Shown here piece after piece: positions 3,414-33,255 of a stretch of 34,146 nt of DNA. The stretch lies in the IMG/VR virus record IMGVR_UViG_2541047954_000008; one strand, given 5' to 3'. Each line of letters starts with the position of its first letter. Within the stretch, counting starts at the first letter, position 1. The DNA is from a virus. Its lineage: Duplodnaviria > Heunggongvirae > Uroviricota > Caudoviricetes. Made by a program: the position numbers and the translations under genes. The notes under the pieces were generated by a model. That model saw nothing but the letters and a program-made list of their open reading frames with translations. It was not told the DNA's origin and did not search any database.

Positions 3414-6400
3414 TGTACAATCCTCCATCCCGACGCGATGACTGCATAATTGACACAACCCTGCTGTCGATCAGATCCACCAGTCCCCTGGCTGAGCGCG
3501 CATCTATCTCGCCATTGCTCCCTTGATTCTGAATGCTGATGTGATACACGGGAGAATAAACAAATCCACCGCCACCATTCACATTTCCAATGGCCCTGAC
3601 CCCAAGAGAGCCGTCCGCTGCCCGTGTCAGTGGCATGATTGCTTCAGGCCCGGCCTCGCCCATCAACCCGGCACCTTTCGCAAAAGCAAAATACGTCGGT
3701 GTATCCACAATAGTGTTACTGTAAGCACTCAGATTTGCCGATGTGTAAACACCACCTTTTGCGTTTGCCACTACCCCCGAAATCCATCCGCCGACCGTAC
3801 CAAGCCACCCTCCGGCACCGGAGAGTGATTTCAGTCCGTTAACAATGGCTGCATTCATCAGAATTTTTGAAACTTCCCGGAGAACTGAACTCCCCCAGTT
3901 CCTCCAGTCCACAACATTCCCGGCCAGTGCATCGGAAATATTTGATACCAGCCCGTCCATCGTGGAAACGACAGCATCTGCCGCCTGTGAAGCATAATCG
4001 GTGGCACTGTCTGCCCAGTTGGTCAGTCCCTCCTGGAGTCCGGCATTCCAGTTATTACGTAAAGCATCGGCCTTTGCATAATAATCCTGCTGATCGCTGA
4101 GACGCTCTTCCAGATATTTTTTATTCAGTTCTTTCTCCTGTTTCCACAGGGCTTCTTCAATTTCTCCGGCCTGATACTGTCTCAGCAGCTCGTTATTTTT
4201 CTGCTCAAACGCCTGCCGGATACTCCACATTTCCTGGAGTCGTTCACGCATCCGTGAGCCTTCACCATATCCCAGCAACTGCGCTTCGTCAGATGCCCGG
4301 GCACTGGCATTACTGTCCGCCAGACTGCTCTCATACGCAGCAAGCTGCTCACGAATCTTTTTCTGGTCGATGAGTGCTGCATTCTGCAAAAGCGTTTTTT
4401 TCTGCGCTTCTGACAGGGTTGATAATTCGCCCTGACTGACCTGATATTTCATCTTAGCCAGTTCAGTATTCTGCCCTGCCAATGCTATTTGTTCTTTTTG
4501 CTGTTTAATCAGCCGTTTATAAATATCTTCTGTTTTTTCCGCTTCGGTCTTTTTATGCGCTTTGGGTTTATTTGCCTGGTTATTTCGCCAGGCATCCAGT
4601 GAGGTATTGATATAATTCTGTCTGGCTGTCTGATACGCCTCTCCCACAAAGCCGAGATCATCCGCAGCATAACCCAGGCGGGCACGCTCACGGGCTTCCC
4701 CCTTCAGGCGGGACAGAGCCAGTTCGCGCTCGCTGTTATTCAGTGCGGTCTGCTGTTTATCATCCAGGGTTGCCTGTGGTAGCCGTAACGGTACATTCAC
4801 CAGCCCCTGTCGCTGCTGAAGTAATTCATTACCGAGCCCGAGAAGGCGATTAAACTCGGTATGCTGCCCATTCATGATCAACAGGGACTGATACGCTTTG
4901 TTTTGTTCCGCGGCCTGTTGACGGATCAACGCCACCCGTCGCTCCTCCAGCCCGGCAAGCACATCCTGAATGGATTGCGCTTTGCCCTGCATTTGTGTGA
5001 GACGGGACTGTTCAACTGCCAGTTGATTTGTTGCTTCTGCAAGCCCTTCTGTGACAGTTTTTACCGACGTCATGTGGTTAATCATAAAACCGTTATCGGT
5101 TGTCCAGCCCGGGTTTGCCAGCACATACTGATAGCCAGCAATTTTTTCCTGTAAGGATTTAATCTTACTTTTCTGCTCGTCAATTAACCTGTTTTGCTCA
5201 TCAAGTGCCTGCCGCGTCTTTTCCTCATTATCTGACGCTTCAGGAAGCGACATTGCCGACGTTTTCTGGCGAATTTCGTCGATTGTTGCGGCATACTGGC
5301 GTGCAGATTCTCTGGCCTGCTCCTGATTCTGATACATCGTGTACCAGGCCGTCGCCCCCAGCATGACTAGTCCCGGCACACCACCAACCAACCCCAGCGC
5401 ACCACTTAACAGACGACTCCCCACTGACGTGACAGTATTCAGCGTTGTCTGTGCCGCTGTTCTGGCCGCAATATTACGGGTAAGTGACGCCTGGGCAGCT
5501 GTCAGCTTCGCTTCTGCTGCGGCCTGCCTTTCGGTACCGCGAGCAGCAACAACCGCCTGTTGCGCACGATAAACCGCCGCACGCGCCCTGGCGGTTGCTA
5601 TCTGTGTCCCCCGAAGTTGCGCTTCAGCAAGAGCCACTTCGTTTCTGGCTGCAGTAATTAATCCGGCAGTTGCAGATCCAGCAGACGACGCCATATTGCC
5701 AAAATATCGGGCTCCCCCGACGGCAACCAGTGCGCCAGCTGCAGCAGCCACGGTATCAATATTGTCTGCAACACCATTCAACACCCCGGTGAGTGTCTTT
5801 GTCACTCCGCTTGCCTCGTTCGCACCACCAACCCAGGCCATAAAGGCGTTTTCAACTTTGGTTGCAGAGGATGAAACAGTATCAGGCATTGCTGCATATT
5901 CATCACGCAACGCCCCAAGCTGACTAATCAGTGCAGGAACAACCTTATCGGCGGTCAGTTTTCCGTTATCCGCCATGGCCTTCAGATCCTTACGGGCAAC
6001 ACCCATTCCCGCAGCCAGCGCACGAATAACACGATCGCCGTTCTCATTCACAGAGTTAAATTCTTCACCGCGCAGCACTCCCTGCGCCAGTGCCTGACTG
6101 AACTGCGTGATCACCGAACTGGCTTCTGCTGTACTGGCACCGGATAATTTCAGGCCCGTGGAGATCGCCTCGGTGACTTTCAGTACCTCCTCAGAACTGT
6201 AGCCATACTCCCGCATGGAAGCTGCAGAGCGGGCAAAAAGGCTGGCGTTATCAGAAAACGCCGTTCCCGTTCTCTGGCTGATTGCCATTAATTCACGTTG
6301 TGATACCTGAAAATCATCACTGGACTGTGAAGCCTGCTTCAGACGGGCATTGACTGAATTCCACTCATCGGCGAGAGAAATAAGATGACCGGTAGCAAAA

Positions 6401-6633: not shown

Positions 6634-6654
6634 ACTCGTTCTCCGGACGAAAAA

Positions 6655-6670
6655 AACCGCCGAAGCGGTT
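6655..6670 (-). terminator. Hairpin plus U-tract element between T and H (accgc-cgaa-gcggt followed by T7 on the coding strand)
   Basis: Read directly: forward aaaaaaaccgccgaagcggtt; lies in the 45-bp gap between T stop and H start. Confidence 0.35.
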
Positions 6671-6678
6671 ATGTTGAC

Positions 6679-15885: not shown

Positions 15886-16350
15886 CTACTTAATGCACTG
15901 AGTGCGGATATACTCCTGTGCCCCTTCCAGTTGCATCTGCATCGTCATCAGCCGCTCTCTGAGGGTGAAATAATCCCGTTCAGCGGTGTCTGCCAGTCGG
16001 GGGGAGGCTGCATTATCCACGCCGGAGGTGGTGGTGGCTTCACGCACTGACTGACAGACTGCTTTGATGTGCAACCGACGACGACCAGCGGCAACATCAG
16101 CGCGCAGAGTTTCATTTTCAGCTTTCGCATTGGCTAATTCTCTCGAGTACTTTGCATCGAGCGCAGCAACATCACGCTGACGCTGCTGCATGTCAGCGAT
16201 GGTGGCGTTCGCCTGCTTCAGCTCACTGACTTTTTTATCACGCTGTTCTTTGTAGGCAATGGCGTTATCACGATAATGATTAACAGCCCATGACAGGCAG
16301 ACGATGATGCAGATAACCAGAACATAAATAATCGCGGCGACTCTGCTCAC
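15886..16350 (-). CDS. Rz-type inner-membrane spanin
   Basis: GTG 16350-16348 with GGGGGA upstream, overlaps endolysin stop; N-terminal TM then coiled coil; Rz1 embedded in +1 frame. Confidence 0.8.
15948..16130 (-). CDS. Rz1-type outer-membrane lipoprotein spanin, embedded in Rz
   Basis: 60 aa, signal peptide with lipobox VVVGC, proline-rich (PPPPPAW), wholly inside Rz in another frame. Confidence 0.75.
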
Positions 16351-16880
16351 TGATCTATCCCCCAACAGGATAATGCGCTTTCCTGGTCACGACGAATAAC
16401 CTGTCCATAGCAGTTATTTGAACGGATACGGCAGTCACGCCCACCATCTTTTATCCACCAGCGAATCGCCTCGCATGCACCTTTACGATCACCGGCATTC
16501 AGCCGCTTATAAAACGTCGACGGGAAACACTTACCGGGGCCAATGTTATAGGGACAGAATGATGCGATACCGGCTTTCTGTGGCTCAGTCAGTGGAACTT
16601 TTATATTGCGCTCCACCCATGCCAGCGCCTTATCACGCTCAATGGCATTAACCTGAGCGCATTTTTCCTTCGACAGTTTCATTCCTGGTACGACTGGCTT
16701 ACCGTCCACCATCGTTGCACCGCGGCAGATGGTCCATATGCCGGAACCATCGCGGTATGCCGTAGTGTGGTTACCCTCTTTTTCATCCAGAAACTGGTCA
16801 AGTATTTGAGGAGCAGACGCGCCTGCAGCAATCAGCGCCAGAACAGCAGCTGACAGGCCGTATTTGATTTTTGCGCTCAT
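16347..16880 (-). CDS. Endolysin, phage lysozyme with N-terminal SAR-type hydrophobic segment
   Basis: 177 aa; N-terminus [16 protein letters not shown] then E...D...T catalytic spacing ([18 protein letters not shown]). Confidence 0.8.
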
Positions 16881-16935
16881 GGATATTTATCAGGATGCTA
16901 CCAATGAAAGATACTGGAAAGCCAACTGCAAAAAG

Positions 16936-17250
16936 CTAACAACCCGTAATCGAGTTATCAGAACTGTTAATTTTTATGGTATACCGCGCCTCTGAACAGG
17001 GGCGCGTTTGTGGCAACAGCTCGTCCCCTTCACATAACCCGGCAGCAACATCCAGGAAGACCTGTCTGATGCTCCTTCTGGCTGCTGCCTCATAAAACTC
17101 CAGCGCGGCACCTTCAACACGGTCCAGCGAGATGTCCAGGTCAAAAATTTCACCGTCAAAGCGTTTTTTGTCCCGTAACGCTAAAGTTACCGTAACTTTA
17201 TTCTCAAAATTGCGGATCCCTTTCACAATCAGTTCATAGTTTTGAGTCAT
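16936..17250 (-). CDS. Hypothetical protein between holin and endolysin (YdfR-like position)
   Basis: 104 aa, GGGGAGAG upstream of ATG; same placement as ydfR in the Qin lysis cassette as recalled. Confidence 0.55.
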   Translation of the reverse strand: MTQNYELIVKGIRNFENKVTVTLALRDKKRFDGEIFDLDISLDRVEGAALEFYEAAARRSIRQVFLDVAAGLCEGDELLPQTRPCSEARYTIKINSSDNSITGC

Positions 17251-17763: not shown

Positions 17764-17838
<75 letters not shown>

Positions 17839-17841
17839 ATA

Positions 17842-17917
<76 letters not shown>

Positions 17918-17919
17918 AC

Positions 17920-17996
17920 TGGACCGCCACCGGGGACTCGAACCTCGCACACTCAACTTAAAGGGTTGACGCTCTTTCCTGATGAGCTAGTGGCGG
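17920..17996 (-). tRNA. tRNA-like gene, anticodon UUU (Lys) if canonical, with C at position 33
   Basis: Acceptor CCGCCAC/GTGGCGG, anticodon stem UCAAC/GUUGA, loop CCUUUAA, encoded CCA; noncanonical C33 and one T-stem mismatch. Confidence 0.5.
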
Positions 17997-17997
17997 T

Positions 17998-18073
17998 TGG
18001 TGGCCCTTGCTGGATTTGAACCAGCAACCTGGCGATTATGAGTCGCTCGCTCTCACCACTGAGCTAAAGGGCC
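17998..18073 (-). tRNA. tRNA with CAU anticodon (Ile2 lysidine-type or Met), ileX/ileZ-like
   Basis: Acceptor GGCCCUU, anticodon loop CUCAUAA, T-loop TTCAAAT, encoded CCA. Confidence 0.7.
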
Positions 18074-18198
18074 GGGCGCGAAATAATACATATGCCAGTT
18101 CAGCTCTGCAATACCCCACACACACCTGATTCAATCCTGTATCTGCTTCATACATGGTAAAAAGTATGAGCAGCCAACAAAAAGTTACTCAGGCAATA

Positions 18199-18972
18199 TT
18201 AACGTACTCTGACTACATTAATTTTGAAGTCATCAATCTGCCCGCTATTAAGTATAACGAATGTAGAACTCCCATTACTGTACGATTCCGACAATATCAG
18301 CCGATCATCATAGCGTGCAAGAACGTAATACCAGACACTCTCATAGCGAATCATCTGATATTCATTCTTAAACTGGGGCTTGTACCAACCGGCAATAAGT
18401 GAAAATCCCCAGAAATAGATCATGAACCCAGCCATCATACACTCAATCCAGTGATGGCGAATAAAAGACATGTCCGAAAAAAATTTTACTGAAATAAGTC
18501 TTCTTCCTGACCTGACAAAAAACGTAATTATTAAGGCAGCAATAACGCATAAAACCAGTGCATCTGGCGCAACGCGTCGATGAATTACTGAAAACTCCAG
18601 AGCAGGCGGAACAAAAAGCAATAATATCGCCAGAAAAAGTCTGATAAAACTCAGATCCTGCACATTATTTTTTTGTTTGATCCCCAGGAAGAAAAAAACA
18701 CCTGTTCCCCATCCAATCAGGAATATAACAATGACTGTAACAGCATAAAAAAGGCTCCGGGCCACATCATCGACACCAGCCCCAACAACCCACCATGGGA
18801 AACCATAGTAAAAGGAAGTTCCCCAGCCATAGAAGTAAGCGCTCCCCCACCCAAGACAGCCCATATAAGCAACAAAAAGTGAAGAGTGCCTGAGCAGAGT
18901 ACTGTCATCCATAGCAACACCATTAACAACCCAAAAACATAACAACACATTGCATAACAAATGAAGCTCCAT
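18199..18972 (-). CDS. AT-rich cargo gene: polytopic membrane protein (about 6 TM helices, ~65-aa C-terminal tail), function unknown
   Basis: 257-aa ORF in a visibly AT-rich segment; hydrophobic runs e.g. FYAVTVIVIFLIGWGTGVFFFLGI; between the tR'-like terminator and the tRNA array. Confidence 0.6.
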   Translation of the reverse strand: MELHLLCNVLLCFWVVNGVAMDDSTLLRHSSLFVAYMGCLGWGSAYFYGWGTSFYYGFPWWVVGAGVDDVARSLFYAVTVIVIFLIGWGTGVFFFLGIKQKNNVQDLSFIRLFLAILLLFVPPALEFSVIHRRVAPDALVLCVIAALIITFFVRSGRRLISVKFFSDMSFIRHHWIECMMAGFMIYFWGFSLIAGWYKPQFKNEYQMIRYESVWYYVLARYDDRLILSESYSNGSSTFVILNSGQIDDFKINVVRVR

Positions 18973-19141: not shown

Positions 19142-19831
19142 TCAATCTACTTTTGCAACACTTTGCTTTGAAAATGCCGCCTTTTGTATTGAACGTATTC
19201 TCATTACAAACAATAAAGCCTCACTATCCAGTCGGTGAAAAATGTGTTTCATTGCAACCCAGTGACGAGTAAATGTTTTGGACCAGTTTTTAGTTGTCAC
19301 TCCCGCCAGTAATGCCAGCTCCTGGTATTCATAACCTTCCCCACCAAAAAGTTCTGCTTTTACTGCCTGCGCCGCCAGCCAGATTAATTTTTTCAGGCGT
19401 TCCTGCGTTTTCCCTGCAATTTTTCTGGTACCGGATTGAGTATTAAATTCATTCCACGCCCACTGTGTTATCGCGATCTGATATTCCCAACAAATACTCC
19501 CGCTGTAACACCACAACAACCAGGCTTTATGATGTTCTTCAAGAGACAGAACAGCCCGCCGCCACGATGATGTCGAAAACTCAACCGGACTGACCAGAGG
19601 AATTGACGTCCCCTTCGCCAGCGATTGCTTTCCCGGGATTGGTGGATTATCCCGCGTTATCATTTTTCCAGTCACTTCATCGCGGTACCGGATTTTTTTT
19701 CGCCTGTAACGCCCTGTATCGAACATGGCATTCTCTTGCCAGGCTTCAAGCTGACCTTTTGTTGCCCCACTCAAATCAGCGGTGGCGATAATGAGCTGCT
19801 CACGCACAAACTGTAAATACTGGTTATTCAT
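19142..19831 (-). CDS. Putative late-gene antiterminator (Q-like)
   Basis: ATG 19831-19829 overlaps RusA stop (ATGA), GGAG upstream; position between RusA and a terminator preceding the lysis genes. Call by synteny. Confidence 0.55.
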   Translation of the reverse strand: MNNQYLQFVREQLIIATADLSGATKGQLEAWQENAMFDTGRYRRKKIRYRDEVTGKMITRDNPPIPGKQSLAKGTSIPLVSPVEFSTSSWRRAVLSLEEHHKAWLLWCYSGSICWEYQIAITQWAWNEFNTQSGTRKIAGKTQERLKKLIWLAAQAVKAELFGGEGYEYQELALLAGVTTKNWSKTFTRHWVAMKHIFHRLDSEALLFVMRIRSIQKAAFSKQSVAKVD

Positions 19832-20193
19832 GCGCACTCCAGTTCTGTGATTTTTATCCCCAGCCGCCCACCAGGAACGAGCTGACCGCGCACAATATTG
19901 ATTTCATCAAACTGCTCGTCGTCTATAAGTAGTCCGGCATGCGTCAGCGCATCCAGTGGTGCCTTCAGGATATTGTCCAGGTCGCGGCGGCGCTTATCCG
20001 GTGGCTCTGCAATAATCTTTATCGCCAGCCTTCCGGACAGGCTTAATTTCAGCCGCTGCTGGCGAACAATTAGCGCCACATCACGGCGATAACGCTTTCC
20101 AGCTTCCGAGATGAAATACGTATTGCCATGACGTCGCCAGTAGGTATTCACCGTCGGCGGGTAAGGCAAAACAAATTCTATGCGTTCAGTCAT
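19828..20193 (-). CDS. rusA: RusA-family Holliday junction resolvase
   Basis: 121 aa; motifs YPPTVNTYWR and DKRRRDLDNILKAPLDAL recalled as RusA-like. Confidence 0.8.
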   Translation of the reverse strand: MTERIEFVLPYPPTVNTYWRRHGNTYFISEAGKRYRRDVALIVRQQRLKLSLSGRLAIKIIAEPPDKRRRDLDNILKAPLDALTHAGLLIDDEQFDEINIVRGQLVPGGRLGIKITELECA

Positions 20194-21529: not shown

Positions 21530-21612
21530 CGGTTGTCTCTGCTGGCGCAGCAGGTGCCAGTTGTTCAGGCTGGCGTGCGAATTGTAAACCAGAATGCCAG
21601 GAAAAAACAAAA

Positions 21613-21626
21613 CCCGCCGAAGCGGG
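21613..21626 (-). terminator. Intrinsic terminator downstream of lipoprotein gene
   Basis: cccgc-cgaa-gcggg stem-loop followed on the coding strand by TTTTGTTTTTT. Confidence 0.45.
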
Positions 21627-21825
21627 TATGCTAAAACGAACTGAAAGTAATATACCGGACTTGTAAAGGAACGATAGAATAATTATTGGATTAAACCCTG
21701 ACTCAATCCAGATTTCATAGGCAACAACTACGGACTAATCATCACAGTCATGTTTGATAGGCTTAGTCCACATTGGGTGAGGGTTTACGGCGTTTTCACT
21801 AATAATTTATCGTCCAAGCTATACA

Positions 21826-22218
21826 CTACTGCCCTGTTTTAACGAAGTTTTTAAAGGAAACAACTGCCTGATAGGGGTTTGGTTGACAGCCAAACATATT
21901 ATCGCAAAAAGGCTTGATGAAAATTCTTGAGGATCCATCTTCATTTGGCATTTTACTCACTTGATAAGCGAGGAATGGACTATTTGGAGAGGGATTATAA
22001 GTGGAAATTAGCGTGTCTGTCGCCGTTTGAATTTTCCATGAGGAATTATTAGCCAACCAGAATTGCGCTCGTTTCCAATAAAAGTCACATTGCTTTTCAT
22101 CATTACATGTTAGTGGCTTCATTGCTTCTGCTTTCAACGCTGGATCGACCTTTGCTGCACACCCTCCCAACATTACTGTTGCAATCATTACACCTGCGAC
22201 TAAAACAAGTTTCTTCAT
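21826..22218 (-). CDS. AT-rich cargo gene: secreted lipoprotein, function unknown
   Basis: 130 aa; signal peptide MKKLVLVAGVMIATVMLGGC with lipobox Cys; AT-rich; terminator-like hairpins on both sides. Confidence 0.65.
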   Translation of the reverse strand: MKKLVLVAGVMIATVMLGGCAAKVDPALKAEAMKPLTCNDEKQCDFYWKRAQFWLANNSSWKIQTATDTLISTYNPSPNSPFLAYQVSKMPNEDGSSRIFIKPFCDNMFGCQPNPYQAVVSFKNFVKTGQ

Positions 22219-22361
22219 CTCCCTGCCCCATCAATAAAAGTTCGGTTCTCTAATAACTAGAGTTAATCAACGGAAAAAACGCCGAAGCGGGTTAAGTGTG
22301 GGTGCATTGAGGATGCCTGACTCATCAGAGGTGGCGAGGGATTTCTCCCCCGCCAGGTCTC

Positions 22362-22517
22362 TTACTCCTCAGGTTCGTAAGCTGTGAAGACAGCGACCTC
22401 CGTCTGGCCGGTTCGGATTCGTACCTCGCAGAGGTCTTTCCTCGTTACCAGTGCCGTCACTATGACGGTTAAACAGATGACGATCAGGGCGATTAGCATC
22501 GCCTTTTGCTGCTTCAT
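22362..22517 (-). CDS. hok: Hok/Gef-family type I toxin (51 aa)
   Basis: MKQQKAMLIALIVICLTVIVTALVTRKDLCEVRIRTGQTEVAVFTAYEPEE, recalled as HokD/RelF-like; AGGAGAAG 8 nt upstream; in-frame upstream ATG at 22574 gives a 70-codon ORF. Confidence 0.85.
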   Translation of the reverse strand: MKQQKAMLIALIVICLTVIVTALVTRKDLCEVRIRTGQTEVAVFTAYEPEE

Positions 22518-22728
22518 AGCCTGCTTCTCCTTGCCTTTCGGCACGTAAGAGGCTAACCTACATGTGTTCAGCATGGATTGAGCCTCAGATTAATGTTAAG
22601 CGTCTTGCGGGACGCGTAATGTTAACTGGGGCTTTTCTCTATCTGCCGTTGGTGTTCATGCCCGAGGCAGATAGCCTCAAGCACCCGCAGCAATTCTACT
22701 TAACTCACGTCACCTCGCCAATATAAAA

Positions 22729-22946: not shown

Positions 22947-23063
22947 TCAACGTCTGTGTGCGGGGCGTTTTTTAATACCTTCCCCCCAGCGGCAAATCGA
23001 ATACACCACCAGCGCCACCGCCATTGCAATTCCTACCGTTGTGAATGCTTCAGGCCAGGTCAT
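22947..23063 (-). CDS. Candidate 38-aa single-TM peptide coupled to the 171-aa gene
   Basis: ATG 23063-23061 overlaps upstream stop (ATGA); MTWPEAFTTVGIAMAVALVVYSICRWGEGIKKRPAHRR. Confidence 0.3.
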   Translation of the reverse strand: MTWPEAFTTVGIAMAVALVVYSICRWGEGIKKRPAHRR

Positions 23064-23575
23064 CGCAAAACATCCTCCGCGCTTATCAGTTCGTTCCGCT
23101 TCAGGTAGTCCATCGCCTTCTCCGGTAATTTGCAGTCTGGATTAGCTTTTTTCAGTTGACTGACCAGTCGTTTAACCCACATTGTTAATTCGCCAACTTG
23201 GTTACTGGATGCTAATGGATTGTCGGCTTTACCCAGAATGACAGCACAGCAGGCCTCTTTGAGAACCCAATCAACAGCATCTTTCCATACTCCTGTTTCG
23301 ACTGGTGGATTCTCACGCTTTACCTGTTCATAAAAGCGCACGGCTTTAACCAGTCCTTCTGATATCACCGGGGCTGGCGGGGTAGTGAATAAGGCCTGAA
23401 TCTCATAGCTCGGCCTGTCGTTGCAATCCTCTTTTGTCGGTACATATTTCCAGTCACCAACCCACATCTTCTCCTGAAAGTCCGTAACGCCCTTTTTCAC
23501 ATAGCGATATCGCCATGCAACTGGTTTTTCCTGCCCTACCGTTTCATGCCCTTCCTGATAATTAATCTCGCTCAT
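23060..23575 (-). CDS. Hypothetical protein (171 aa)
   Basis: Clean ORF, start overlaps upstream stop (ATGA); no recognisable motif. Confidence 0.6.
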   Translation of the reverse strand: MSEINYQEGHETVGQEKPVAWRYRYVKKGVTDFQEKMWVGDWKYVPTKEDCNDRPSYEIQALFTTPPAPVISEGLVKAVRFYEQVKRENPPVETGVWKDAVDWVLKEACCAVILGKADNPLASSNQVGELTMWVKRLVSQLKKANPDCKLPEKAMDYLKRNELISAEDVLR

Positions 23576-23748
23576 TCATCGCCCCACTCATCACAATATG
23601 CTTCGACAGGTGTTTTTCCTGCTTCGTAGTCATCACGCCAGGCTTCAGCATCAGCAGCACTTCCACCACGTAACTCTGCATAATCCATTAACAGTTCATG
23701 CCATTCTTCAAAACTGACATTGTATTTAGTTGAACCAAAATCAGCCAT
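23572..23748 (-). CDS. Small acidic protein (58 aa)
   Basis: ATG 23748-23746 with GGAGGA 8 nt upstream; MADFGSTKYNVSFEEWHELLMDYAELRGG...DEWGDE; below track cut-off. Confidence 0.5.
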   Translation of the reverse strand: MADFGSTKYNVSFEEWHELLMDYAELRGGSAADAEAWRDDYEAGKTPVEAYCDEWGDE

Positions 23749-23923
23749 TTTGTTCTTCCTCCTCGTCTTTTATTTCGTGATATGAGTAATTGCAGTAGTT
23801 AAAGAAAATTTCTTTTGCTTCGTCATGAATTTCATCTGGTGTTGCGTCATCGTCCACTTCGAATACATCCTCAAAATCTCCACCAGCTATTCCTGTTTCA
23901 ATAATTATTTTGAACTTTCGCAT
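23741..23923 (-). CDS. Small acidic protein (60 aa)
   Basis: Track ORF; Asp/Glu-rich (FEDVFEVDDDATPDEIHDEAKE...KDEEEEQNG); hairpin and palindromes upstream. Confidence 0.5.
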   Translation of the reverse strand: MRKFKIIIETGIAGGDFEDVFEVDDDATPDEIHDEAKEIFFNYCNYSYHEIKDEEEEQNG

Positions 23924-24067
23924 TTCACTACCGCCCTTTCGGGCGGCCTCCTGATGATTTGAGGGTACAGAAATCCCTCCGGTTAAGGATTAAATTTTAT
24001 TTACAGAACTGAATTTAATTATTCAGATATACGTATCTGTAACCTTACGAACCTACTCACTGGATGC

Positions 24068-24541
24068 CTATTTCATAAAAATAATCCAGTGGGTTTTATC
24101 GTTTTTTCCTGTTCGTTGACCGATAACAGGTTTTCTGTCGGTCAGTATCAATATCTGGCGAACAGGTATTTGCGTTTCATTCCATTTAAAAATCAGAACG
24201 CCGGATGGACGCAACACACGAAAGGCTTCTTTAAATCCCTGCCGCAAATCATCACGCCAGGTATCTTTATTCAGCCGTCCATATTTCTTTCCCATCCAGG
24301 CGTTATCACCAACACGCTCAAGATGCGGAGGGTCGAATATAACCATCGAAAAAGATGCGTCTGCAAATGGTAGTGCACGAAAATCAGCTATCAGATCAGG
24401 ACTGATAATCAGGCGTCGTCCATCACACAATGTGTGCTCTTCCTTTCTGATATCGCTAAATATCGCCCGGTCGTCATTCTTATCGAACCAGAACATGCGA
24501 CTGCCACAGCACATATCAAGAATGGTTGCCGGTGCACTCAC
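24068..24541 (-). CDS. Orphan DNA methyltransferase (DPPH motif)
   Basis: 157 aa; LDMCCGSRMF (motif I-like) then IFDPPH (motif IV-like); GTG start with GGAGG upstream overlapping upstream stop; no restriction partner seen. Confidence 0.65.
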   Translation of the reverse strand: MSAPATILDMCCGSRMFWFDKNDDRAIFSDIRKEEHTLCDGRRLIISPDLIADFRALPFADASFSMVIFDPPHLERVGDNAWMGKKYGRLNKDTWRDDLRQGFKEAFRVLRPSGVLIFKWNETQIPVRQILILTDRKPVIGQRTGKNDKTHWIIFMK

Positions 24542-26885: not shown

Positions 26886-27524
26886 ATGAGCAAGCAAACA
26901 ATATCTGAACGCATAACCCAACGTATGCATGCGCTAAACCTGAAAGGCAAAGACCTTGTCAATGCCACTGGCGCATCAAAAGGCTCCGTAAGTCAATGGA
27001 TGAACGGTGGAGGAGCGCCGTCCTCGCGTTACATAAGTTCACTGGCAAAGGTATTGAAAGTAAACGAAAATTGGCTTCTTAATGGAGGAGAGTTAAATAC
27101 AGGTGATTCGCTTGATCTATCTTTACCGCCGATAAAAACGGTTCCGCTACTATCACTTCAGCAGGCAGCAAGCTGGAGTGATTATATGAAAAATTCCTCA
27201 ATAACCTCTTGTGTGCAGCTTGTCGGAGAAATCCCGGCCAATACCTTTGCAGTTGTTCTAGAGAGTGACAGTATGTCAACATCTGGTGGGGGAGTTTCCA
27301 TCCCAAATGGTTCAACAGTTTTTGTTGATCCCGATCGAACCGTACAACCAGGAAATATTGTCCTTGCCTTACCCAAAGGGACCACAACACCTGTCATTCG
27401 TAAACTGGAGATAGAAGGGCCGGATATTCTTTTAGTCCCCACGAATCCTCGCTACCCTTCAATTATGCTGGATGATCTATCTTGCATATTGGGCGTATGC
27501 TTTAAAATTCAACAAGATATTTAA
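26886..27524 (+). CDS. cI-like repressor (N-terminal HTH, C-terminal S24 LexA-like peptidase)
   Basis: 212 aa; HTH GKDLVNATGASKGSVSQWMNG; C-terminal ESDSMS (Ser) and downstream Lys consistent with Ser-Lys dyad. Confidence 0.85.
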   Translation: MSKQTISERITQRMHALNLKGKDLVNATGASKGSVSQWMNGGGAPSSRYISSLAKVLKVNENWLLNGGELNTGDSLDLSLPPIKTVPLLSLQQAASWSDYMKNSSITSCVQLVGEIPANTFAVVLESDSMSTSGGGVSIPNGSTVFVDPDRTVQPGNIVLALPKGTTTPVIRKLEIEGPDILLVPTNPRYPSIMLDDLSCILGVCFKIQQDI

Positions 27525-28745: not shown

Positions 28746-28914
28746 AAAGTGAATTTTGTGATGCGGTGAATGCGGCTAAGCGCACGCGGAACAGTTAAAA
28801 CCAAAAACAGTGTTATGGGTGGATTCTCTGTATCCGGCGTTAATTGTTAACTGGTTAACGTCACCTGGAGGCACCAGGCACCGCATCACAAAACTCATTG
28901 TTGAGGGCGCGATA

Positions 28915-29103
28915 ATGAAAACGTTATTACCAAACGTTAATACGTCTGAAGGTTGTTTTGAAATTGGTGTCACTATCAGTAATCCTGTATTTACTGAAGA
29001 TGCCATTAACAAAAGAAAACACGAACGGGAGTTATTAAATAAAGTATGCATTGTTTCAATGCTGGCCCGTTTACGTCTGATGCCAAAAGGATGTGCACAA
29101 TGA
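28915..29103 (+). CDS. dicB: Cell division inhibitor DicB (62 aa)
   Basis: MKTLLPNVNTSEGCFEIGVTISNPVFTEDAINKRK..., recalled as near-identical to K-12 DicB; GAGGG upstream. Confidence 0.8.
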   Translation: MKTLLPNVNTSEGCFEIGVTISNPVFTEDAINKRKHERELLNKVCIVSMLARLRLMPKGCAQ

Positions 29104-29291
29104 ATCCAGTATTTGCACTTATTCTGACGGTTTTTCTTGTTTCCGGAGAGCCAGTTGATATTGCAGTCAGTGTTCACAGAACAATGCAGGAATGTATGGC
29201 AGCAGCAACCGAACAGAAAATTCCAGGCAACTGTTATCCGGTCGATAAAGTTATTCACCAGGATAATAACGAAATCCCGGCAGGATTTTAA
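29100..29291 (+). CDS. ydfD: YdfD-like lysis-associated small membrane protein (63 aa)
   Basis: ATG overlaps dicB stop (ATGA); hydrophobic N-terminus MNPVFALILTVFLVSG. Confidence 0.7.
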   Translation: MNPVFALILTVFLVSGEPVDIAVSVHRTMQECMAAATEQKIPGNCYPVDKVIHQDNNEIPAGF

Positions 29292-29384
29292 AACAGCACC
29301 GTAATAAATATCCAGTTTCATTCTTATATGTCAGCAATGGCAGAGATTTGTTCACACTTAAATCTGTGATGAGGTTTACCAATA

Positions 29385-31826
29385 ATGAGCACTGATAAAG
29401 AAGAATTTGCACTATATTGCGAAGCAAAAAATGACAAAGTAAGAAAACGCCTAGGAATTAAAGGTGGTTTTTACTGGACTACAGCAAAAAAATTATCTGT
29501 TGCAATCTCCCGCTGCATTACCGCAATGGATGACAACGATTATGATGAAGACGACTTTAAAAAACCCGTCCGCGTCAATTTGCCCGTTGTTGACGACCTT
29601 CCGCCAGAAGGCGTGTTTGATACTGAATTCTGCAACCGCTATGAAAAAGGCGGGAAAGATGGCATCACAATGACATTTATCGGCCCTTCCCCCTCTGTTC
29701 AGGACAAACCAGCCAGCACTGACAATACCAACATCAACGGCGAAGACATGACTGAGATTGAGGAGAGCATGCTTCTGCCTGTCTCCGGTCAGGAACTGCC
29801 CATTCGTTGGCTTGCTCAACACGGCAGCGAAAAACCAGTAACGCACGTTTCACGCGACGAACTCCAGGCATTACACATTGCACGGGCTGAAGAACTACCG
29901 GCTGTTACTGCCCTGGCTATTTCGCATAAAACCAGTCTGCTCGACTCGCTGGAGATTCGCGACCTCCACAAACTGGTTCGTGACACTGACAAAGTTTTCC
30001 CTAATCCTGGTAATTCAGACCTGGGACTAATAACTGCTTTTTTCGAAGCATACCTGGACGCTGACTACACTGATCGGGGTCTGCTGACAAAAGAGTGGAT
30101 GAAAGGAAATCGTGTTTCACGCATCACCCGCACGGCTTCCGGTGCTAATGCTGGCGGTGGGAACAAAACCGATCGCAATCCGAATTTAGTACACACCCTC
30201 GACACACTGGATGTGGAGATTGCAGCAGCCACACTTCCGATGGATTTTAATATTTATGAAATTCCGGGCAGCGTTTATCGTCGCGCAAAAGAAGTAGTCC
30301 TGAACAAAGAAAGTCCGTTCAAAGAATGGTCCGCAGCACTTCGTGCAACCCCGGGTATTCTGGACTATTCCCGCGCCGCTATTTTTGCACTTATCCGAAG
30401 CGCACACCCTGAATTTTATCACTACCCGGGACGCCTTCAGGGGTATATCAACGCCTATTTGACGGAAACTGATCACGAGAACCCCAGCAAGGAAACTCTC
30501 ACAGCTGCCCGGCATACGCCGGAAAAAGATATCCTGGAAAAAATTAACCGCGAGGTGGTTACTGAGCGTGAAACAGAAGAAGAAAAACCACAACCATCTG
30601 ACGCAATGGCAGGTGAACAGGCAACAACTGAAACAATGGAACCGGATACAACTGAACATGGCCAGAACGCGCAGTCGCTGGATGCTCAGTCGCAGGTGAG
30701 TTCCGCTAACCAAGTAAAAGTCACCGCTGACGAAGTAAACAAAATTATGCAGGCAGCCAATATCAGCCAGCCTGACGCCGATAAGTTACTTGCTGTATCG
30801 CGTGGTGAATTTGTTGAGGGGATTAGCGACCCTAATGATCCGAAATGGGTCAAGGGGATCCAGACTCGCGATTCTGTGAACCAGAACCAGCATGAATCGG
30901 AACGGAACGACCAAAAAGCGGAACAAAACAGCCTAAATGCGTTACAAAACGAGCCAGAAACGAAACAATCCGAACCAGTAGCGCAACAGGAACCGGAAAA
31001 AGTCTGCACCGCCTGCGGTCAGAGCGGTGGCGGCAACTGCCCTGATTGTGGCGCGGTGATGGGCGACGCAACATACCAGGAAACATTCGATGAAGAGAAT
31101 CAGGTTGAAGTTCAGGAAAATGATCTGGAGGAAATGGAAGGCGCTGAACATCCACACAAGGAGAACCCTGGCGGCAATCAGCATCACGCCAGCGATAATA
31201 AAACTGGCGAGGCGACAGATCCCTTAATTAAGGTGAATGGTCATCATAAGCTCACATCCACCAGCAGAGCGGGGATTCATCTGATGATCGACCTTGAAAC
31301 CATGGGAAAAAATCCCGATGCCCCGATTATCTCAATAGGCGCAATATTTTTCGATCCACAAACCGGAGATATGGGACCGGAATTTAGCAAGACCATCGAT
31401 CTGGATACTGCTGGCGGAGTCATTGATCGTGACGTCATTAAATGGTGGCTGAAGCAATCACGTGAAGCGCAGTCTGCCATTATGACCGATGAAATCCCGT
31501 TAGATGATGCACTACTGCAATTGCGGGAATTTATCGACGAAAACTCCGGTGAATTTTTTGTTCAGGTCTGGGGTAATGGGGCCAACTTCGACAACGTGAT
31601 TTTACGCCGTTCATACGAACGACAGGGTATCCCCTGCCCATGGCGCTACTGCAACGATCGCGATGTACGCACAATCGTTGAGCTGGGGAAAGCCATAGAC
31701 TTCGATGCCAGAACTGCTATCCCATTCGAAGGTGAGCGCCATAATGCACTTGATGACGCTCGTTACCAGGCAAAATACGTTTCAGCTATCTGGCAAAAAC
31801 TGATCCCGAGTCAGGCTGATTTTTAA
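29385..31826 (+). CDS. 813-aa exonuclease: C-terminal DnaQ-like DEDDh 3'-5' exonuclease domain, central zinc ribbon, acidic linker
   Basis: Exo motifs MIDLETMG, GNGANFDNVIL, HNALDDARY in last ~190 aa; CTACG-x7-CPDCG at about 31006-31050; full-length relative of the truncated K-12 ydfE as recalled. Confidence 0.7.
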   Translation: MSTDKEEFALYCEAKNDKVRKRLGIKGGFYWTTAKKLSVAISRCITAMDDNDYDEDDFKKPVRVNLPVVDDLPPEGVFDTEFCNRYEKGGKDGITMTFIGPSPSVQDKPASTDNTNINGEDMTEIEESMLLPVSGQELPIRWLAQHGSEKPVTHVSRDELQALHIARAEELPAVTALAISHKTSLLDSLEIRDLHKLVRDTDKVFPNPGNSDLGLITAFFEAYLDADYTDRGLLTKEWMKGNRVSRITRTASGANAGGGNKTDRNPNLVHTLDTLDVEIAAATLPMDFNIYEIPGSVYRRAKEVVLNKESPFKEWSAALRATPGILDYSRAAIFALIRSAHPEFYHYPGRLQGYINAYLTETDHENPSKETLTAARHTPEKDILEKINREVVTERETEEEKPQPSDAMAGEQATTETMEPDTTEHGQNAQSLDAQSQVSSANQVKVTADEVNKIMQAANISQPDADKLLAVSRGEFVEGISDPNDPKWVKGIQTRDSVNQNQHESERNDQKAEQNSLNALQNEPETKQSEPVAQQEPEKVCTACGQSGGGNCPDCGAVMGDATYQETFDEENQVEVQENDLEEMEGAEHPHKENPGGNQHHASDNKTGEATDPLIKVNGHHKLTSTSRAGIHLMIDLETMGKNPDAPIISIGAIFFDPQTGDMGPEFSKTIDLDTAGGVIDRDVIKWWLKQSREAQSAIMTDEIPLDDALLQLREFIDENSGEFFVQVWGNGANFDNVILRRSYERQGIPCPWRYCNDRDVRTIVELGKAIDFDARTAIPFEGERHNALDDARYQAKYVSAIWQKLIPSQADF

Positions 31827-31884: not shown

Positions 31885-32088
31885 ATGAGCAGCTTATTTT
31901 TAACCGAAGATGAATTGCTAATATTAACGGGCTGCAAATATGCAAGCCACCAGCGAAAATGGTTAATGGAAAACGGGCTTCCGTTCTATACCAATCGTAG
32001 TGGCAAACCGATTGTCAGCCGGGATCTATTTACCTGCAATAAAACTTTACCACCACGCGAGGTAGAGCCGAATTTTGGTGCGATCTGA
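31885..32088 (+). CDS. xis: Excisionase-like DNA-binding protein
   Basis: 67 aa immediately upstream of integrase; stop overlaps integrase ATG. Confidence 0.6.
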   Translation: MSSLFLTEDELLILTGCKYASHQRKWLMENGLPFYTNRSGKPIVSRDLFTCNKTLPPREVEPNFGAI

Positions 32089-33113
32089 TGGGAAGACGAA
32101 GGAAAAATCCTGAACACGAAAAATTACCTCCAAATGTATACCCAAATAAATATAGTTATGTATGGAAACCAACATCCAGAGAATCTGTCACACTAACCGC
32201 CATCAAGGATGGTTTAGCTGCTTTATGGAAAAAGTATGAGGAAACTGTAAATAATCGCGATCGTGCAATGACATTCGGTCGCTTGTGGGAAAAATTCCTC
32301 GCCAGCGCCTATTACAGTGACCTTAGTCCAAGAACACAAAAAGATTATCTGCAACATCAAAAAAAGTTGCTTGCCGTATTCGGTAAGGTACCAGCGGATT
32401 CCATAAAACCAGAACACATCCGTCGATACATGGACAAAAGAGGGGAGCAGAGTAAAACGCAAGCCAACCATGAAAAAAGCAGTATGTCCCGTGTTTACAG
32501 TTGGGGGTATGAGCGAGGGTACGTCAAGGCTAACCCATGTGCAGGTGTAAGTAAATTCAAGGCCAAAAACCGCGAACGATATGTAACCGACAAAGAATAC
32601 CAGGCAGTATTAAGCGTTGCACCTCTTCCTGTTTTTATCGCAATGGAAATTGCCTATCTGTGTGCAGCGAGGGTTTCCGATGTGTTATCGCTGAAATGGG
32701 AACAGATTGGAAACGACGGGATATTCATCCAGCAAGGGAAAACCGGAAAAAAACAGATAAAAGCATGGAGTCCACGATTACAGGCAGCGATCGAAAAAGC
32801 AAAACAGTTACCAAAATCTGCCTATGTGATCAGCAATCAATACGGCAACCGATATATGTACAAAGGCTTTAACGAAATGTGGGTAGAAGCAAGAAATCGT
32901 GCTGGAAAAATTTCAGGTATTTTAACCGACTTCACCTTTCATGATCTGAAGGCGAAAGGAATTTCAGACTATGAAGGAAGCAGCCGGGATAAGCAACTTT
33001 TCTCTGGTCACAAAACCGAAGGGCAAGTGCTAATCTATGACAGGAAGGTTAAAGTTTCACCAACACTTGATGTCCCGTTACCTGAAAATATTCCAAGAAA
33101 ATATTCCAAGTAA
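32088..33113 (+). CDS. int: Tyrosine integrase
   Basis: 341 aa; C-terminal catalytic region with HDLK and conserved Tyr (LIYDRK); adjacent to tRNA. Confidence 0.85.
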   Translation: MGRRRKNPEHEKLPPNVYPNKYSYVWKPTSRESVTLTAIKDGLAALWKKYEETVNNRDRAMTFGRLWEKFLASAYYSDLSPRTQKDYLQHQKKLLAVFGKVPADSIKPEHIRRYMDKRGEQSKTQANHEKSSMSRVYSWGYERGYVKANPCAGVSKFKAKNRERYVTDKEYQAVLSVAPLPVFIAMEIAYLCAARVSDVLSLKWEQIGNDGIFIQQGKTGKKQIKAWSPRLQAAIEKAKQLPKSAYVISNQYGNRYMYKGFNEMWVEARNRAGKISGILTDFTFHDLKAKGISDYEGSSRDKQLFSGHKTEGQVLIYDRKVKVSPTLDVPLPENIPRKYSK

Positions 33114-33165: not shown

Positions 33166-33255
33166 TGGCGGAGAGAGGGGGATTTGAACCCCCGGTGGAG
33201 TTGCCCCCACTCCGGTTTTCGAGACCGGTCCGTTCAGCCGCTCCGGCATCTCTCC
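33166..33255 (-). tRNA. serU: tRNA-Ser (anticodon CGA), host gene serving as att site
   Basis: 90-nt cloverleaf with long variable arm: GGAGAGATGCCGGAGCGGCTGAACGGACCGGTCTCGAAAACCGG...CTCTCCGCCA. Confidence 0.8.

Follow-up and report, generated by a model that had tools for sequence, protein, structure and literature searches.

The window analyzed here is a stretch of 34,146 nucleotides (nt) from a virus of the Caudoviricetes (IMG/VR record IMGVR_UViG_2541047954_000008), which represents a near-complete lambdoid prophage, 99.9% identical to one adjoining zinT in Escherichia coli LR-60. On its minus strand the window carries a small cassette with an open reading frame (ORF) for a 130-amino acid (aa) predicted lipoprotein precursor (21826–22218), preceded by a 5′ leader (22219–22273) and followed by a 198-nt spacer between the stop codon and a terminator (21628–21825, minus strand). 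The lipoprotein gene is positioned in the nin region of the PR operon, with the replication genes on one side and Q on the other. Directly upstream of the cassette is a complete hok/mok/sok type I toxin-antitoxin locus, and the 3′ neighbors of the cassette are a small phrog_1212 gene and then a DUF968/HNH gene. The features described below indicate that the cassette is a moron, that is, an AT-rich unit which this lambdoid E. coli prophage acquired horizontally and carries in its delayed-early (nin) region.

The precursor begins with MKKLVLVAGVMIATVMLGG, followed by CAAKVD, with a predicted signal peptide at residues 1–19 and an L-G-G-C lipobox (MLGG before C20). The signal region consists of MKK with its two lysines, a 14-residue hydrophobic core (LVLVAGVMIATVM), and LGGC20; it thus has a charged n-region, a hydrophobic core, and a lipobox of the pattern [LVI][ASTVIG][GAS]C within the first ~35 residues. 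Further cysteine residues at positions 38, 44, 105, and 111 form two CX5C motifs (C38/C44 and C105/C111). The original prediction, made from the sequence of this DNA, had described a 130-aa lipoprotein with a signal peptide ending in LGGC and four more cysteines, and the ORF at 21826–22218, together with the conservation of the lipobox in relatives, agreed with that description. From these features we infer cleavage and lipidation at Cys20, and sorting to the outer membrane is predicted because Ala occupies positions +2 and +3, without a Lol-avoidance signal. The gene is under purifying selection, with a ratio of nonsynonymous to synonymous substitution rates (dN/dS) of 0.12–0.19 among E. coli variants and 0.11 relative to the Enterobacter copy, and on this ground a reading of the gene as a pseudogene was rejected. 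Each of the 56 E. coli-type IMG/VR copies (95–100% identity) has an intact ORF.

In the AlphaFold2 model of the lipoprotein, the predicted local distance difference test score was 84 overall and >90 for the mature part, which is predicted to form a compact helix-grip alpha/beta domain of ~105 residues held by the two CX5C pairs. Foldseek searches against PDB and BFVD gave weak matches only, with E around 1e-2, and a PDB sequence search gave no informative match. Comparison with Flpp3 (DUF3568, Francisella) and the N-terminal domain of BamC showed 11–13% identity and TM-scores of about 0.4–0.5; the helix-grip fold is common (KA1, Bet v 1/SRPBCC), so the modeled fold gives no pointer to function. 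A Pfam/NCBIfam search at E ≤ 0.1 yielded no match for the lipoprotein except a spurious one to collagen C4; identity with Bor/Iss (Pfam Lambda_Bor), TraT, and Lom/Ail was ruled out by the lack of a profile match. Cor (phrog_1119) was ruled out since its match (E = 0.0071) was confined to residues 1–44, the signal peptide region; the original prediction, in which the protein had not been recognized as Bor or Cor, was supported. T5 Llp was ruled out because neither the sequence nor the fold resembled the solved Llp structure, and an o-spanin (Rz1-like protein) was ruled out because the gene lies ~5 kilobases (kb) from the lysis genes, has no spanin PHROG match, and encodes a 110-aa folded domain.

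Over its full length (residues 1–130 of 130) the lipoprotein matched phrog_16082 with E = 2.6e-84, and it matched phrog_4186 weakly; both PHROGs are of function unknown. This full-length match and the weak Foldseek hits were the outcome of the homology and structure searches that had been suggested as a check. Relatives at 35–47% identity also matched phrog_16082. A word-indexed search returned only Enterobacterales "hypothetical proteins" that were 66–85% identical, and copies at the same level of identity were present in Enterobacter, Pantoea, and Phytobacter phages. When 1.84 billion representatives were searched with a HMMER profile, 1,141 clusters (defined at 50% identity) matched at E ≤ 1e-3 and 532 at E ≤ 1e-10. 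phrog_16082 is thus a large family without a Pfam model or an assigned function. When 80 diverse family members were compared, there was no variation in the lipobox Cys or in three domain Cys, the fourth domain Cys (C111) was at least 90% conserved, and the CX5C...CX5C spacing was fixed; the lipobox was recognizable in at least 71 of the 80, and residue +2 was never Asp. One member, P0117, has two tandem copies of the lipoprotein domain. In a tblastn search, the only matches among 50,697 phage records were two E. coli phages, both bearing the same cassette, and a literature search found nothing under the protein accession or the phage name, while broader topics yielded analogues only. The 90%-identity cluster that holds the lipoprotein (1,137 members, with an 87-aa fragment as the representative) also contains many Hok sequences and looks like an artefact of the neighboring genes; cluster-level counts for this lipoprotein are unreliable.

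The cassette had been described as lying in an AT-rich stretch, with coordinates that proved right to within a few bases. The 647-bp insert between the two hairpin copies (21628–22274) has a GC content of 39.4%, compared with a window mean of 50.2% (standard deviation 4.6), and ranks in the bottom 1% of segments of equal size. Downstream of the gene, where a hairpin with a T-tract had been predicted, the terminator scan identified an intact rho-independent terminator on the minus strand (21602–21627; stem 21612–21627 and T-tract 21602–21611), which reads ACCCGCTTCGGCGGGT and then TTTGTTTTTT from 21627 to 21602 and has a folding energy of −13.1 kcal/mol (z = −3.4). An identical sequence is present directly 3′ of hok in sites that lack the cassette, and this terminator is evidently the native terminator of the hok mRNA, now closing the cassette. 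The degenerate upstream copy of the same hairpin was also found as predicted (22274–22293, minus strand; direct repeat D2, 665-nt spacing). The two hairpins have in common an exact 13-mer, CGCCGAAGCGGGT, with 2 exact copies compared with 0.02 expected by chance. The upstream copy has lost its stem-closing G's, and its folding energy of −5.1 kcal/mol (z = −0.5) is like that of shuffled sequence; termination at this copy is not expected. The claim that hairpins bracket the cassette was thus correct insofar as two copies of one hairpin are present, but these are not the cassette's own: they represent a duplicated hok terminator, of which the empty sites have a single intact copy.

Within the cassette, the 5′ leader contains a Shine-Dalgarno-like sequence (GGGGCAGGGAG) and, as seen in an alignment with the relatives at loci L008, L011, and L013, the remnant of a promoter box known from those relatives. 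The 3′ spacer contains a 16-nt inverted repeat (21692–21707 and 21772–21787) and co-occurs only with the lipoprotein gene (255 of 5,426 E. coli genomes). It has been cut down by a 68-nt deletion and a ~104-nt deletion in two E. coli lineages. A structured RNA or small RNA in the spacer was rejected on the basis of no Rfam match, a fold z of −0.5, and its deletion in some lineages; the spacer looks like decaying donor DNA.

To compare occupied and empty sites, the region was searched by megablast against 5,426 complete E. coli genomes. The full region was present in 254 of them, and in many others the two flanks were joined in a 236-bp stretch. In the phage collection, 689R5 and 606R7 were occupied and Evi, 813R8, and 640R1 were empty. 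The order in the empty site is hok, a single intact hairpin, and then directly the phrog_1212 gene; in the occupied site, the downstream hairpin corresponds to the native copy, and in the upstream copy the hok flank is joined to the leader of the cassette. The locus therefore shows presence and absence of a gene among collinear phages, a deviating base composition, and a terminator 3′ of the gene, the features by which morons are recognized in lambdoid phages (Juhala/Hendrix, reviewed in PMC3594210), with lambda bor and lom as examples. As with these two, the extra gene occurs in some collinear prophages, has an atypical composition and flanking transcription signals, and encodes a putative envelope product. 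Unlike bor and lom, it is inserted in the nin region, into the terminator of the mRNA for a type I toxin, and belongs to an unrelated protein family; and unlike a typical moron, this copy has no recognizable promoter of its own, and its upstream terminator appears disabled.

The arrangement suggests how the cassette could have entered. It would have recombined inside the UUCG-loop terminator hairpin of the hok/mok/sok mRNA, and the two hairpin copies are explained if this recombination duplicated the hairpin: an exchange within a short common terminator sequence would yield the observed direct repeat, leaving an intact hairpin downstream and a crippled hybrid copy upstream. Either of two routes would suffice: phages could have exchanged DNA unequally, or a circular intermediate could have been taken in by a single crossover. 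Of the 56 E. coli-type IMG/VR copies, 55 have the same crippled hairpin upstream, the exception (L022) having unrelated upstream sequence, and because of this identity the data point to a single ancestral insertion, later spread by module exchange between prophages. E. coli 042 bears the cassette in a prophage with different late genes. At L022 (1–331), the protein is 100% identical, with wholly different DNA 5′ of the ATG, without hok and without the hairpin, possibly owing to a rearrangement or a contig artefact. In another IMG/VR E. coli prophage (L036, 3900–3925), an IS10-like end (ATGAGGGGATCTCTCAG) adjoins the crippled hairpin in place of the hok 3′ region, and the lipoprotein gene is intact.

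Similar hairpins precede the cassette elsewhere. In L008 and L011, the hairpin CCCGCTTCGG(C/T)GGGTTTT, to which the hok terminator is nearly identical in sequence, is contiguous with the conserved cassette leader, and in L013 a diverged version, CTCGCTTAATTGCGGGTTTT, is contiguous with it; the hairpin-plus-leader combination of L008, L011, and L013 occurs at three unrelated junctions. UUCG-loop terminators at gene junctions may be common landing sites of the cassette. A hairpin of the same type, AACCGCTTCGGCGGTTTTTTT, is also present in the tail module of the prophage itself (6650–6672, minus strand), between T and the tape-measure gene, at the T/H junction.

The mok gene (70 aa; 22362–22574, minus strand) contains an in-frame hok gene (51 aa; 22362–22517) and matched Pfam HOK_GEF with E = 3e-23; the hok counterpart in E. 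coli 042 is annotated as hokD. The hok leader and sok antisense region (22512–22721, minus strand) matched Rfam RF01794 (sok) with 113.5 bits, and the promoter scan detected a promoter-like site, TTGGCG-17-TAGAAT, in the leader region at 22721–22693. The functional hok transcript ends with a 3′ fold-back (fbi-like) element at 22298–22320 on the minus strand, close before the point of insertion. The duplex between the 5′ end (22665–22692) and the 3′ end (22294–22322) of the hok mRNA was calculated at −27.6 kcal/mol, compared with −14.5 ± 2.9 for shuffled sequences, of which 1 in 500 equalled it. Complementary mRNA ends of this kind resemble the tac/fbi fold-back in the hok mRNA of plasmid R1. 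The cassette thus lies immediately 3′ of the hok promoter and of a hok mRNA body that is intact, with its fold-back ending at 22298.

The cassette had been proposed to be independently transcribed, and of this proposal the intact downstream terminator stands. A sigma-70 promoter scan of the region from the hairpin to the ATG (22219–22330) found no promoter at the scan threshold, and the conserved extended −10-like box reads AGTTATTAG here, with no TG and with a hexamer that ends in G. Independent transcription is therefore unproven, because no promoter was found, the box is altered, and the upstream terminator is disabled, as it is in the 55 copies with the native junction; co-transcription with hok appears at least as likely. 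In a lysogen, transcripts that start at the hok promoter and run on through the disabled terminator would account for at least part of the transcription of the lipoprotein gene, and during lytic growth the gene would be transcribed from PR; we give this scheme a chance that falls slightly short of even. Against it, a weak promoter could have escaped the scan. A self-contained unit, in which the cassette's own constitutive promoter and terminator make expression independent of the neighbors, would be in keeping with the downstream terminator, with the TATTAT in the leader of the 606R7-type variant, and with the extended −10-like box at a fixed distance and the own terminators of tail-module relatives. 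We regard such a unit as possible but doubtful, since, besides the negative promoter scan, the conserved box is mutated (no TG, hexamer ending in G) in 50 of the 56 E. coli copies, the supposed own terminator is the duplicated hok terminator, and the upstream insulator hairpin is destroyed.

The genomic contexts of relatives were sampled at places outside the E. coli hok site (L004–L013, L016–L020, L077–L080, L082, L083, L085–L088, L143, L145, and L146); the Enterobacterales and metagenomic places number twenty, and with many duplicates they represent about ten distinct kinds of context. All were phage DNA except for the unclassified L143, and roughly half, at no fewer than five different junctions, lie within a few kb of the tail-tip gene J. 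Close relatives (50–85% identity) belong to lambda-like tail-tip modules, where they share the strand of the tail genes and occupy differing junctions: at H/M in Enterobacter hormaechei (L008–L010), at M/L (L012), at K/I (L013, and L083 with a Fic gene), at I/J in Pantoea ananatis (L004, L079, and L080), upstream of I and paired with a second lipoprotein gene (L011, L077, and L078), and in a Phytobacter prophage remnant adjoining a gpM fragment (L005). In the paired arrangement of these Pantoea-type phages, which lies just 5′ of tail genes I and J, the gene (L011, 5374–5721; L077, 4374–4784; L078, 4332–4679) overlaps by ~10 nt the start of the unrelated second lipoprotein gene (phrog_914 or phrog_890). 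In the metagenomic phage L083 (3855–4346), the K/I junction holds a small moron cluster in which the lipoprotein gene is accompanied by the Fic-domain gene and, on the opposite strand, a phrog_3983 gene. An extended −10-like box, TGnTAnnnT, was found 35–42 nt before the start codon in all tail-module relatives except L077, and those checked have a terminator of their own 20–70 nt past the stop codon.

More distant relatives (35–47% identity) are located directly behind cI-like repressors of at least two immunity types, on the same strand: behind one repressor type in L018–L020, L087, L088, and L146; behind another type in L085, with L086 in the same region; with a 4-bp overlap with the repressor stop codon in a small integrase/VapE element (L016/L017); and on the repressor side of a cro-like gene in L082. 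The TGnTAnnnT box was not found in the four repressor-linked relatives checked (L016, L018, L082, and L085), as expected if they are co-transcribed with the repressor. Outside phages, orthologues at 39–47% identity were found in Burkholderiaceae (Caballeronia, Paraburkholderia, and Burkholderia), with an extra Pro/Ala-rich C-terminal tail. The gene order there is ada, gshA, the lipoprotein gene, a divergent gene for an MFS transporter, a MarR gene, and a gene for an outer-membrane efflux protein, and the ada and gshA neighbors are common to about 76–77 of 80 Burkholderiaceae species loci (L147–L226; gene at about 5001–5400 of each). The location of a four-Cys periplasmic lipoprotein gene beside a glutathione synthesis gene may be a functional hint. 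Taken together, the contexts indicate an old bacterial envelope lipoprotein domain that is carried by phages in Enterobacterales at positions typical of prophage-expressed genes.

The explanation that we consider best overall, though with somewhat less than even confidence, is a moron that entered by recombination at the hok terminator and encodes an envelope lipoprotein expressed in the lysogen. An envelope role that benefits the lysogen is supported by the lipoprotein features, by the purifying selection, and by lysogeny-type placements of three kinds; the family would be kept where a prophage expresses genes, namely behind cI-type repressors, in tail-tip units with a promoter and a terminator, and here behind the constitutively transcribed hok. 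The lipoprotein would act on the lysogen's cell envelope as a superinfection-exclusion factor, either by masking an outer-membrane receptor or by blocking a tail-tip or DNA-entry step of siphophages. Exclusion is favored because of the repeated linkage to J at a minimum of five independent junctions and the rexAB-like position of other members. Lipoprotein genes inside the structural clusters of temperate coliphages have been shown to confer receptor-specific exclusion (PMC11893012), and T5 Llp blocks FhuA (bioRxiv 10.1101/2022.06.28.497910). The roles suggested at the outset, receptor blocking or serum resistance, are plausible candidates. Superinfection exclusion at the envelope is our leading guess, and a tentative one; as a candidate for a new factor in phage exclusion or host fitness, the lipoprotein is a good one, though unproven.

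Several observations weigh against an exclusion role. No member of the family is tied to phage exclusion by an experiment or annotation, and PHROG lists the family under its unknown category; PADLOC gave no match for the lipoprotein or four relatives; and the protein resembles Cor, Llp, and Bor in neither sequence nor fold. In E. coli the gene is unlinked to the tail genes, and the C-terminus of J in the prophage that carries it is unrelated to that of the Pantoea-type phages. In a comparison seeking a shared receptor-binding domain, the C-termini of J at the Pantoea-type loci were 50–85% identical and the N-termini were equally similar, which tells neither for nor against a link between the lipoprotein and a J type. 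Many receptor blockers evolve fast, whereas conservation of the lipoprotein is strong. The Burkholderiaceae gene has a syntenic chromosomal position, ~150 nt 3′ of gshA and between ada and the MFS/MarR pair, and 12 of the 80 sampled family members (~15%), including P0034 and P0103, have a C-terminal PDZ domain; these members, like P0117, lie on short contigs. The chromosomal gshA-linked orthologues and the PDZ fusions argue for a general envelope role rather than a phage-specific one.

These last observations would suit a host-fitness or virulence factor, a captured bacterial envelope protein acting in serum or complement resistance, envelope or redox stress, or adhesion, like Bor/Iss and Lom/Ail. 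Besides the orthologues beside gshA in about 77 of 80 Burkholderiaceae species and the PDZ-fused relatives, such a role would be consistent with the fold class, which two lipoproteins of bacteria share, BamC and the Francisella virulence determinant Flpp3, with the strong conservation (dN/dS about 0.1), and with the presence of the cassette in pathogenic lineages, e.g., enteroaggregative E. coli (EAEC) 042 and UMNK88. We consider it unlikely: the sampled places outside the hok site are phage DNA with the single exception of L143, about half of them are near J, a linkage that a receptor-related function would lead one to expect but serum resistance would not, and the protein has no similarity to Bor/Iss, TraT, or Lom. 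It is quite improbable that the lipoprotein is instead a lytic-cycle helper, made by late or delayed-early read-through to shield progeny virions from receptor-bearing debris and without a meaningful lysogen phenotype. The tail-module copies are all on the late-operon strand, the E. coli copy belongs to the PR operon, where the replication genes precede it and Q follows, and a precedent is the second role shown for T5 Llp (bioRxiv 10.1101/2022.06.28.497910), but the repressor-operon relatives are expressed while lytic genes are off, and the promoter-like box and flanking terminators of the tail-module copies would be unnecessary for a purely late gene. That the cassette is decaying passenger DNA, functionless in E. 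coli, is very improbable, because although the 3′ spacer is eroding by deletions and the promoter box and upstream hairpin are degenerate, the ORF is intact in every E. coli-type IMG/VR copy and in 255 genomes, and dN/dS among the E. coli variants is low (0.12–0.19).

As an exclusion candidate, the lipoprotein can be compared with known systems. Like Cor (phi80, N15, T1, and HK022) and Llp (T5), which are FhuA blockers, it is a small phage-encoded lipoprotein of the outer membrane, as predicted here, and close relatives of its gene adjoin tail-tip or receptor-binding genes as cor and llp do. Unlike Cor and Llp, its mature domain has no sequence or fold similarity to either, the E. coli copy is unlinked to tail genes, and no receptor is known. 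The mature size of Cor and Llp is roughly 60 aa, compared with about 110 aa for the cassette lipoprotein. As in lambda rexAB and P22 sieB, family members (about 35–47% identity) lie directly 3′ of cI-like repressors on the same strand, and a position behind the repressor is classic for prophage-expressed exclusion genes. In contrast to rexAB and sieB, the product is a predicted secreted lipoprotein and not a cytoplasmic or inner-membrane protein, and the copy in the window is not behind the repressor. Lpp021 and Lpp010 of mEpimmI coliphages were shown experimentally to exclude phages using the same receptor, OmpA or LamB (PMC11893012); the present family likewise has lipoprotein genes within the structural cluster of temperate phages, but it is not homologous to them at the BLAST level (tblastn of the 50,697 phage records), and exclusion is here only a candidate function.

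The remainder of the window is organized as follows. The integrase gene (32088–33113) adjoins a tRNA-Ser (cga) gene (33166–33255), which is probably the attachment site. Genes for a RecE-like exonuclease and a cI-like repressor (26886–27524, plus strand) are followed by the PR operon on the minus strand, then the replication genes, and then the nin region. After Q (19142–19837) come four tRNA genes (Gly-tcc, Thr-tgt, Lys-ttt, and Met-cat; 17764–18073), which lie between Q and the lysis genes (ORFs 15886–17250), and then the lysis, head, and tail genes. Three further stretches of the window are equally AT-rich (38–39% GC), at about 18100–18750, 23550–24300, and 28800–29600; the ORFs at 18199–18972, 23060–23575, and 28776–29321 in these stretches had no Pfam match and may be further accessory genes.

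Accessory lipoproteins of prophages decide which phages infect a lysogen and can alter virulence, and only a handful of families (Cor, Llp, Bor, and Ltp) have been characterized. The present family comprises >1,100 clusters at 50% identity, has neither a Pfam model nor an assigned function, and occurs in about 5% of the complete genomes of E. coli, those of pathogens among them; phages have repeatedly put its gene at repressor-linked or tail-tip-linked positions. The locus itself provides a clean example of what would be moron entry by terminator-hairpin recombination, with a possible loss of the own promoter as read-through was gained from a neighbor. In the most far-reaching view, which we think rather unlikely, prophages would express phrog_16082 lipoproteins at the outer membrane to exclude superinfecting siphophages, and the family would form a new, widespread class whose mechanism has nothing in common with that of Cor or Llp. 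Its helix-grip domain would derive from a conserved envelope protein of bacteria, the cassette would spread by recombination at UUCG-loop terminator hairpins, and in E. coli a deliberately crippled terminator would have rewired it onto the hok transcript. If the lipoprotein is a true exclusion factor, it would represent a new protein class and would bear on the choice of hosts in phage therapy and on receptor prediction.

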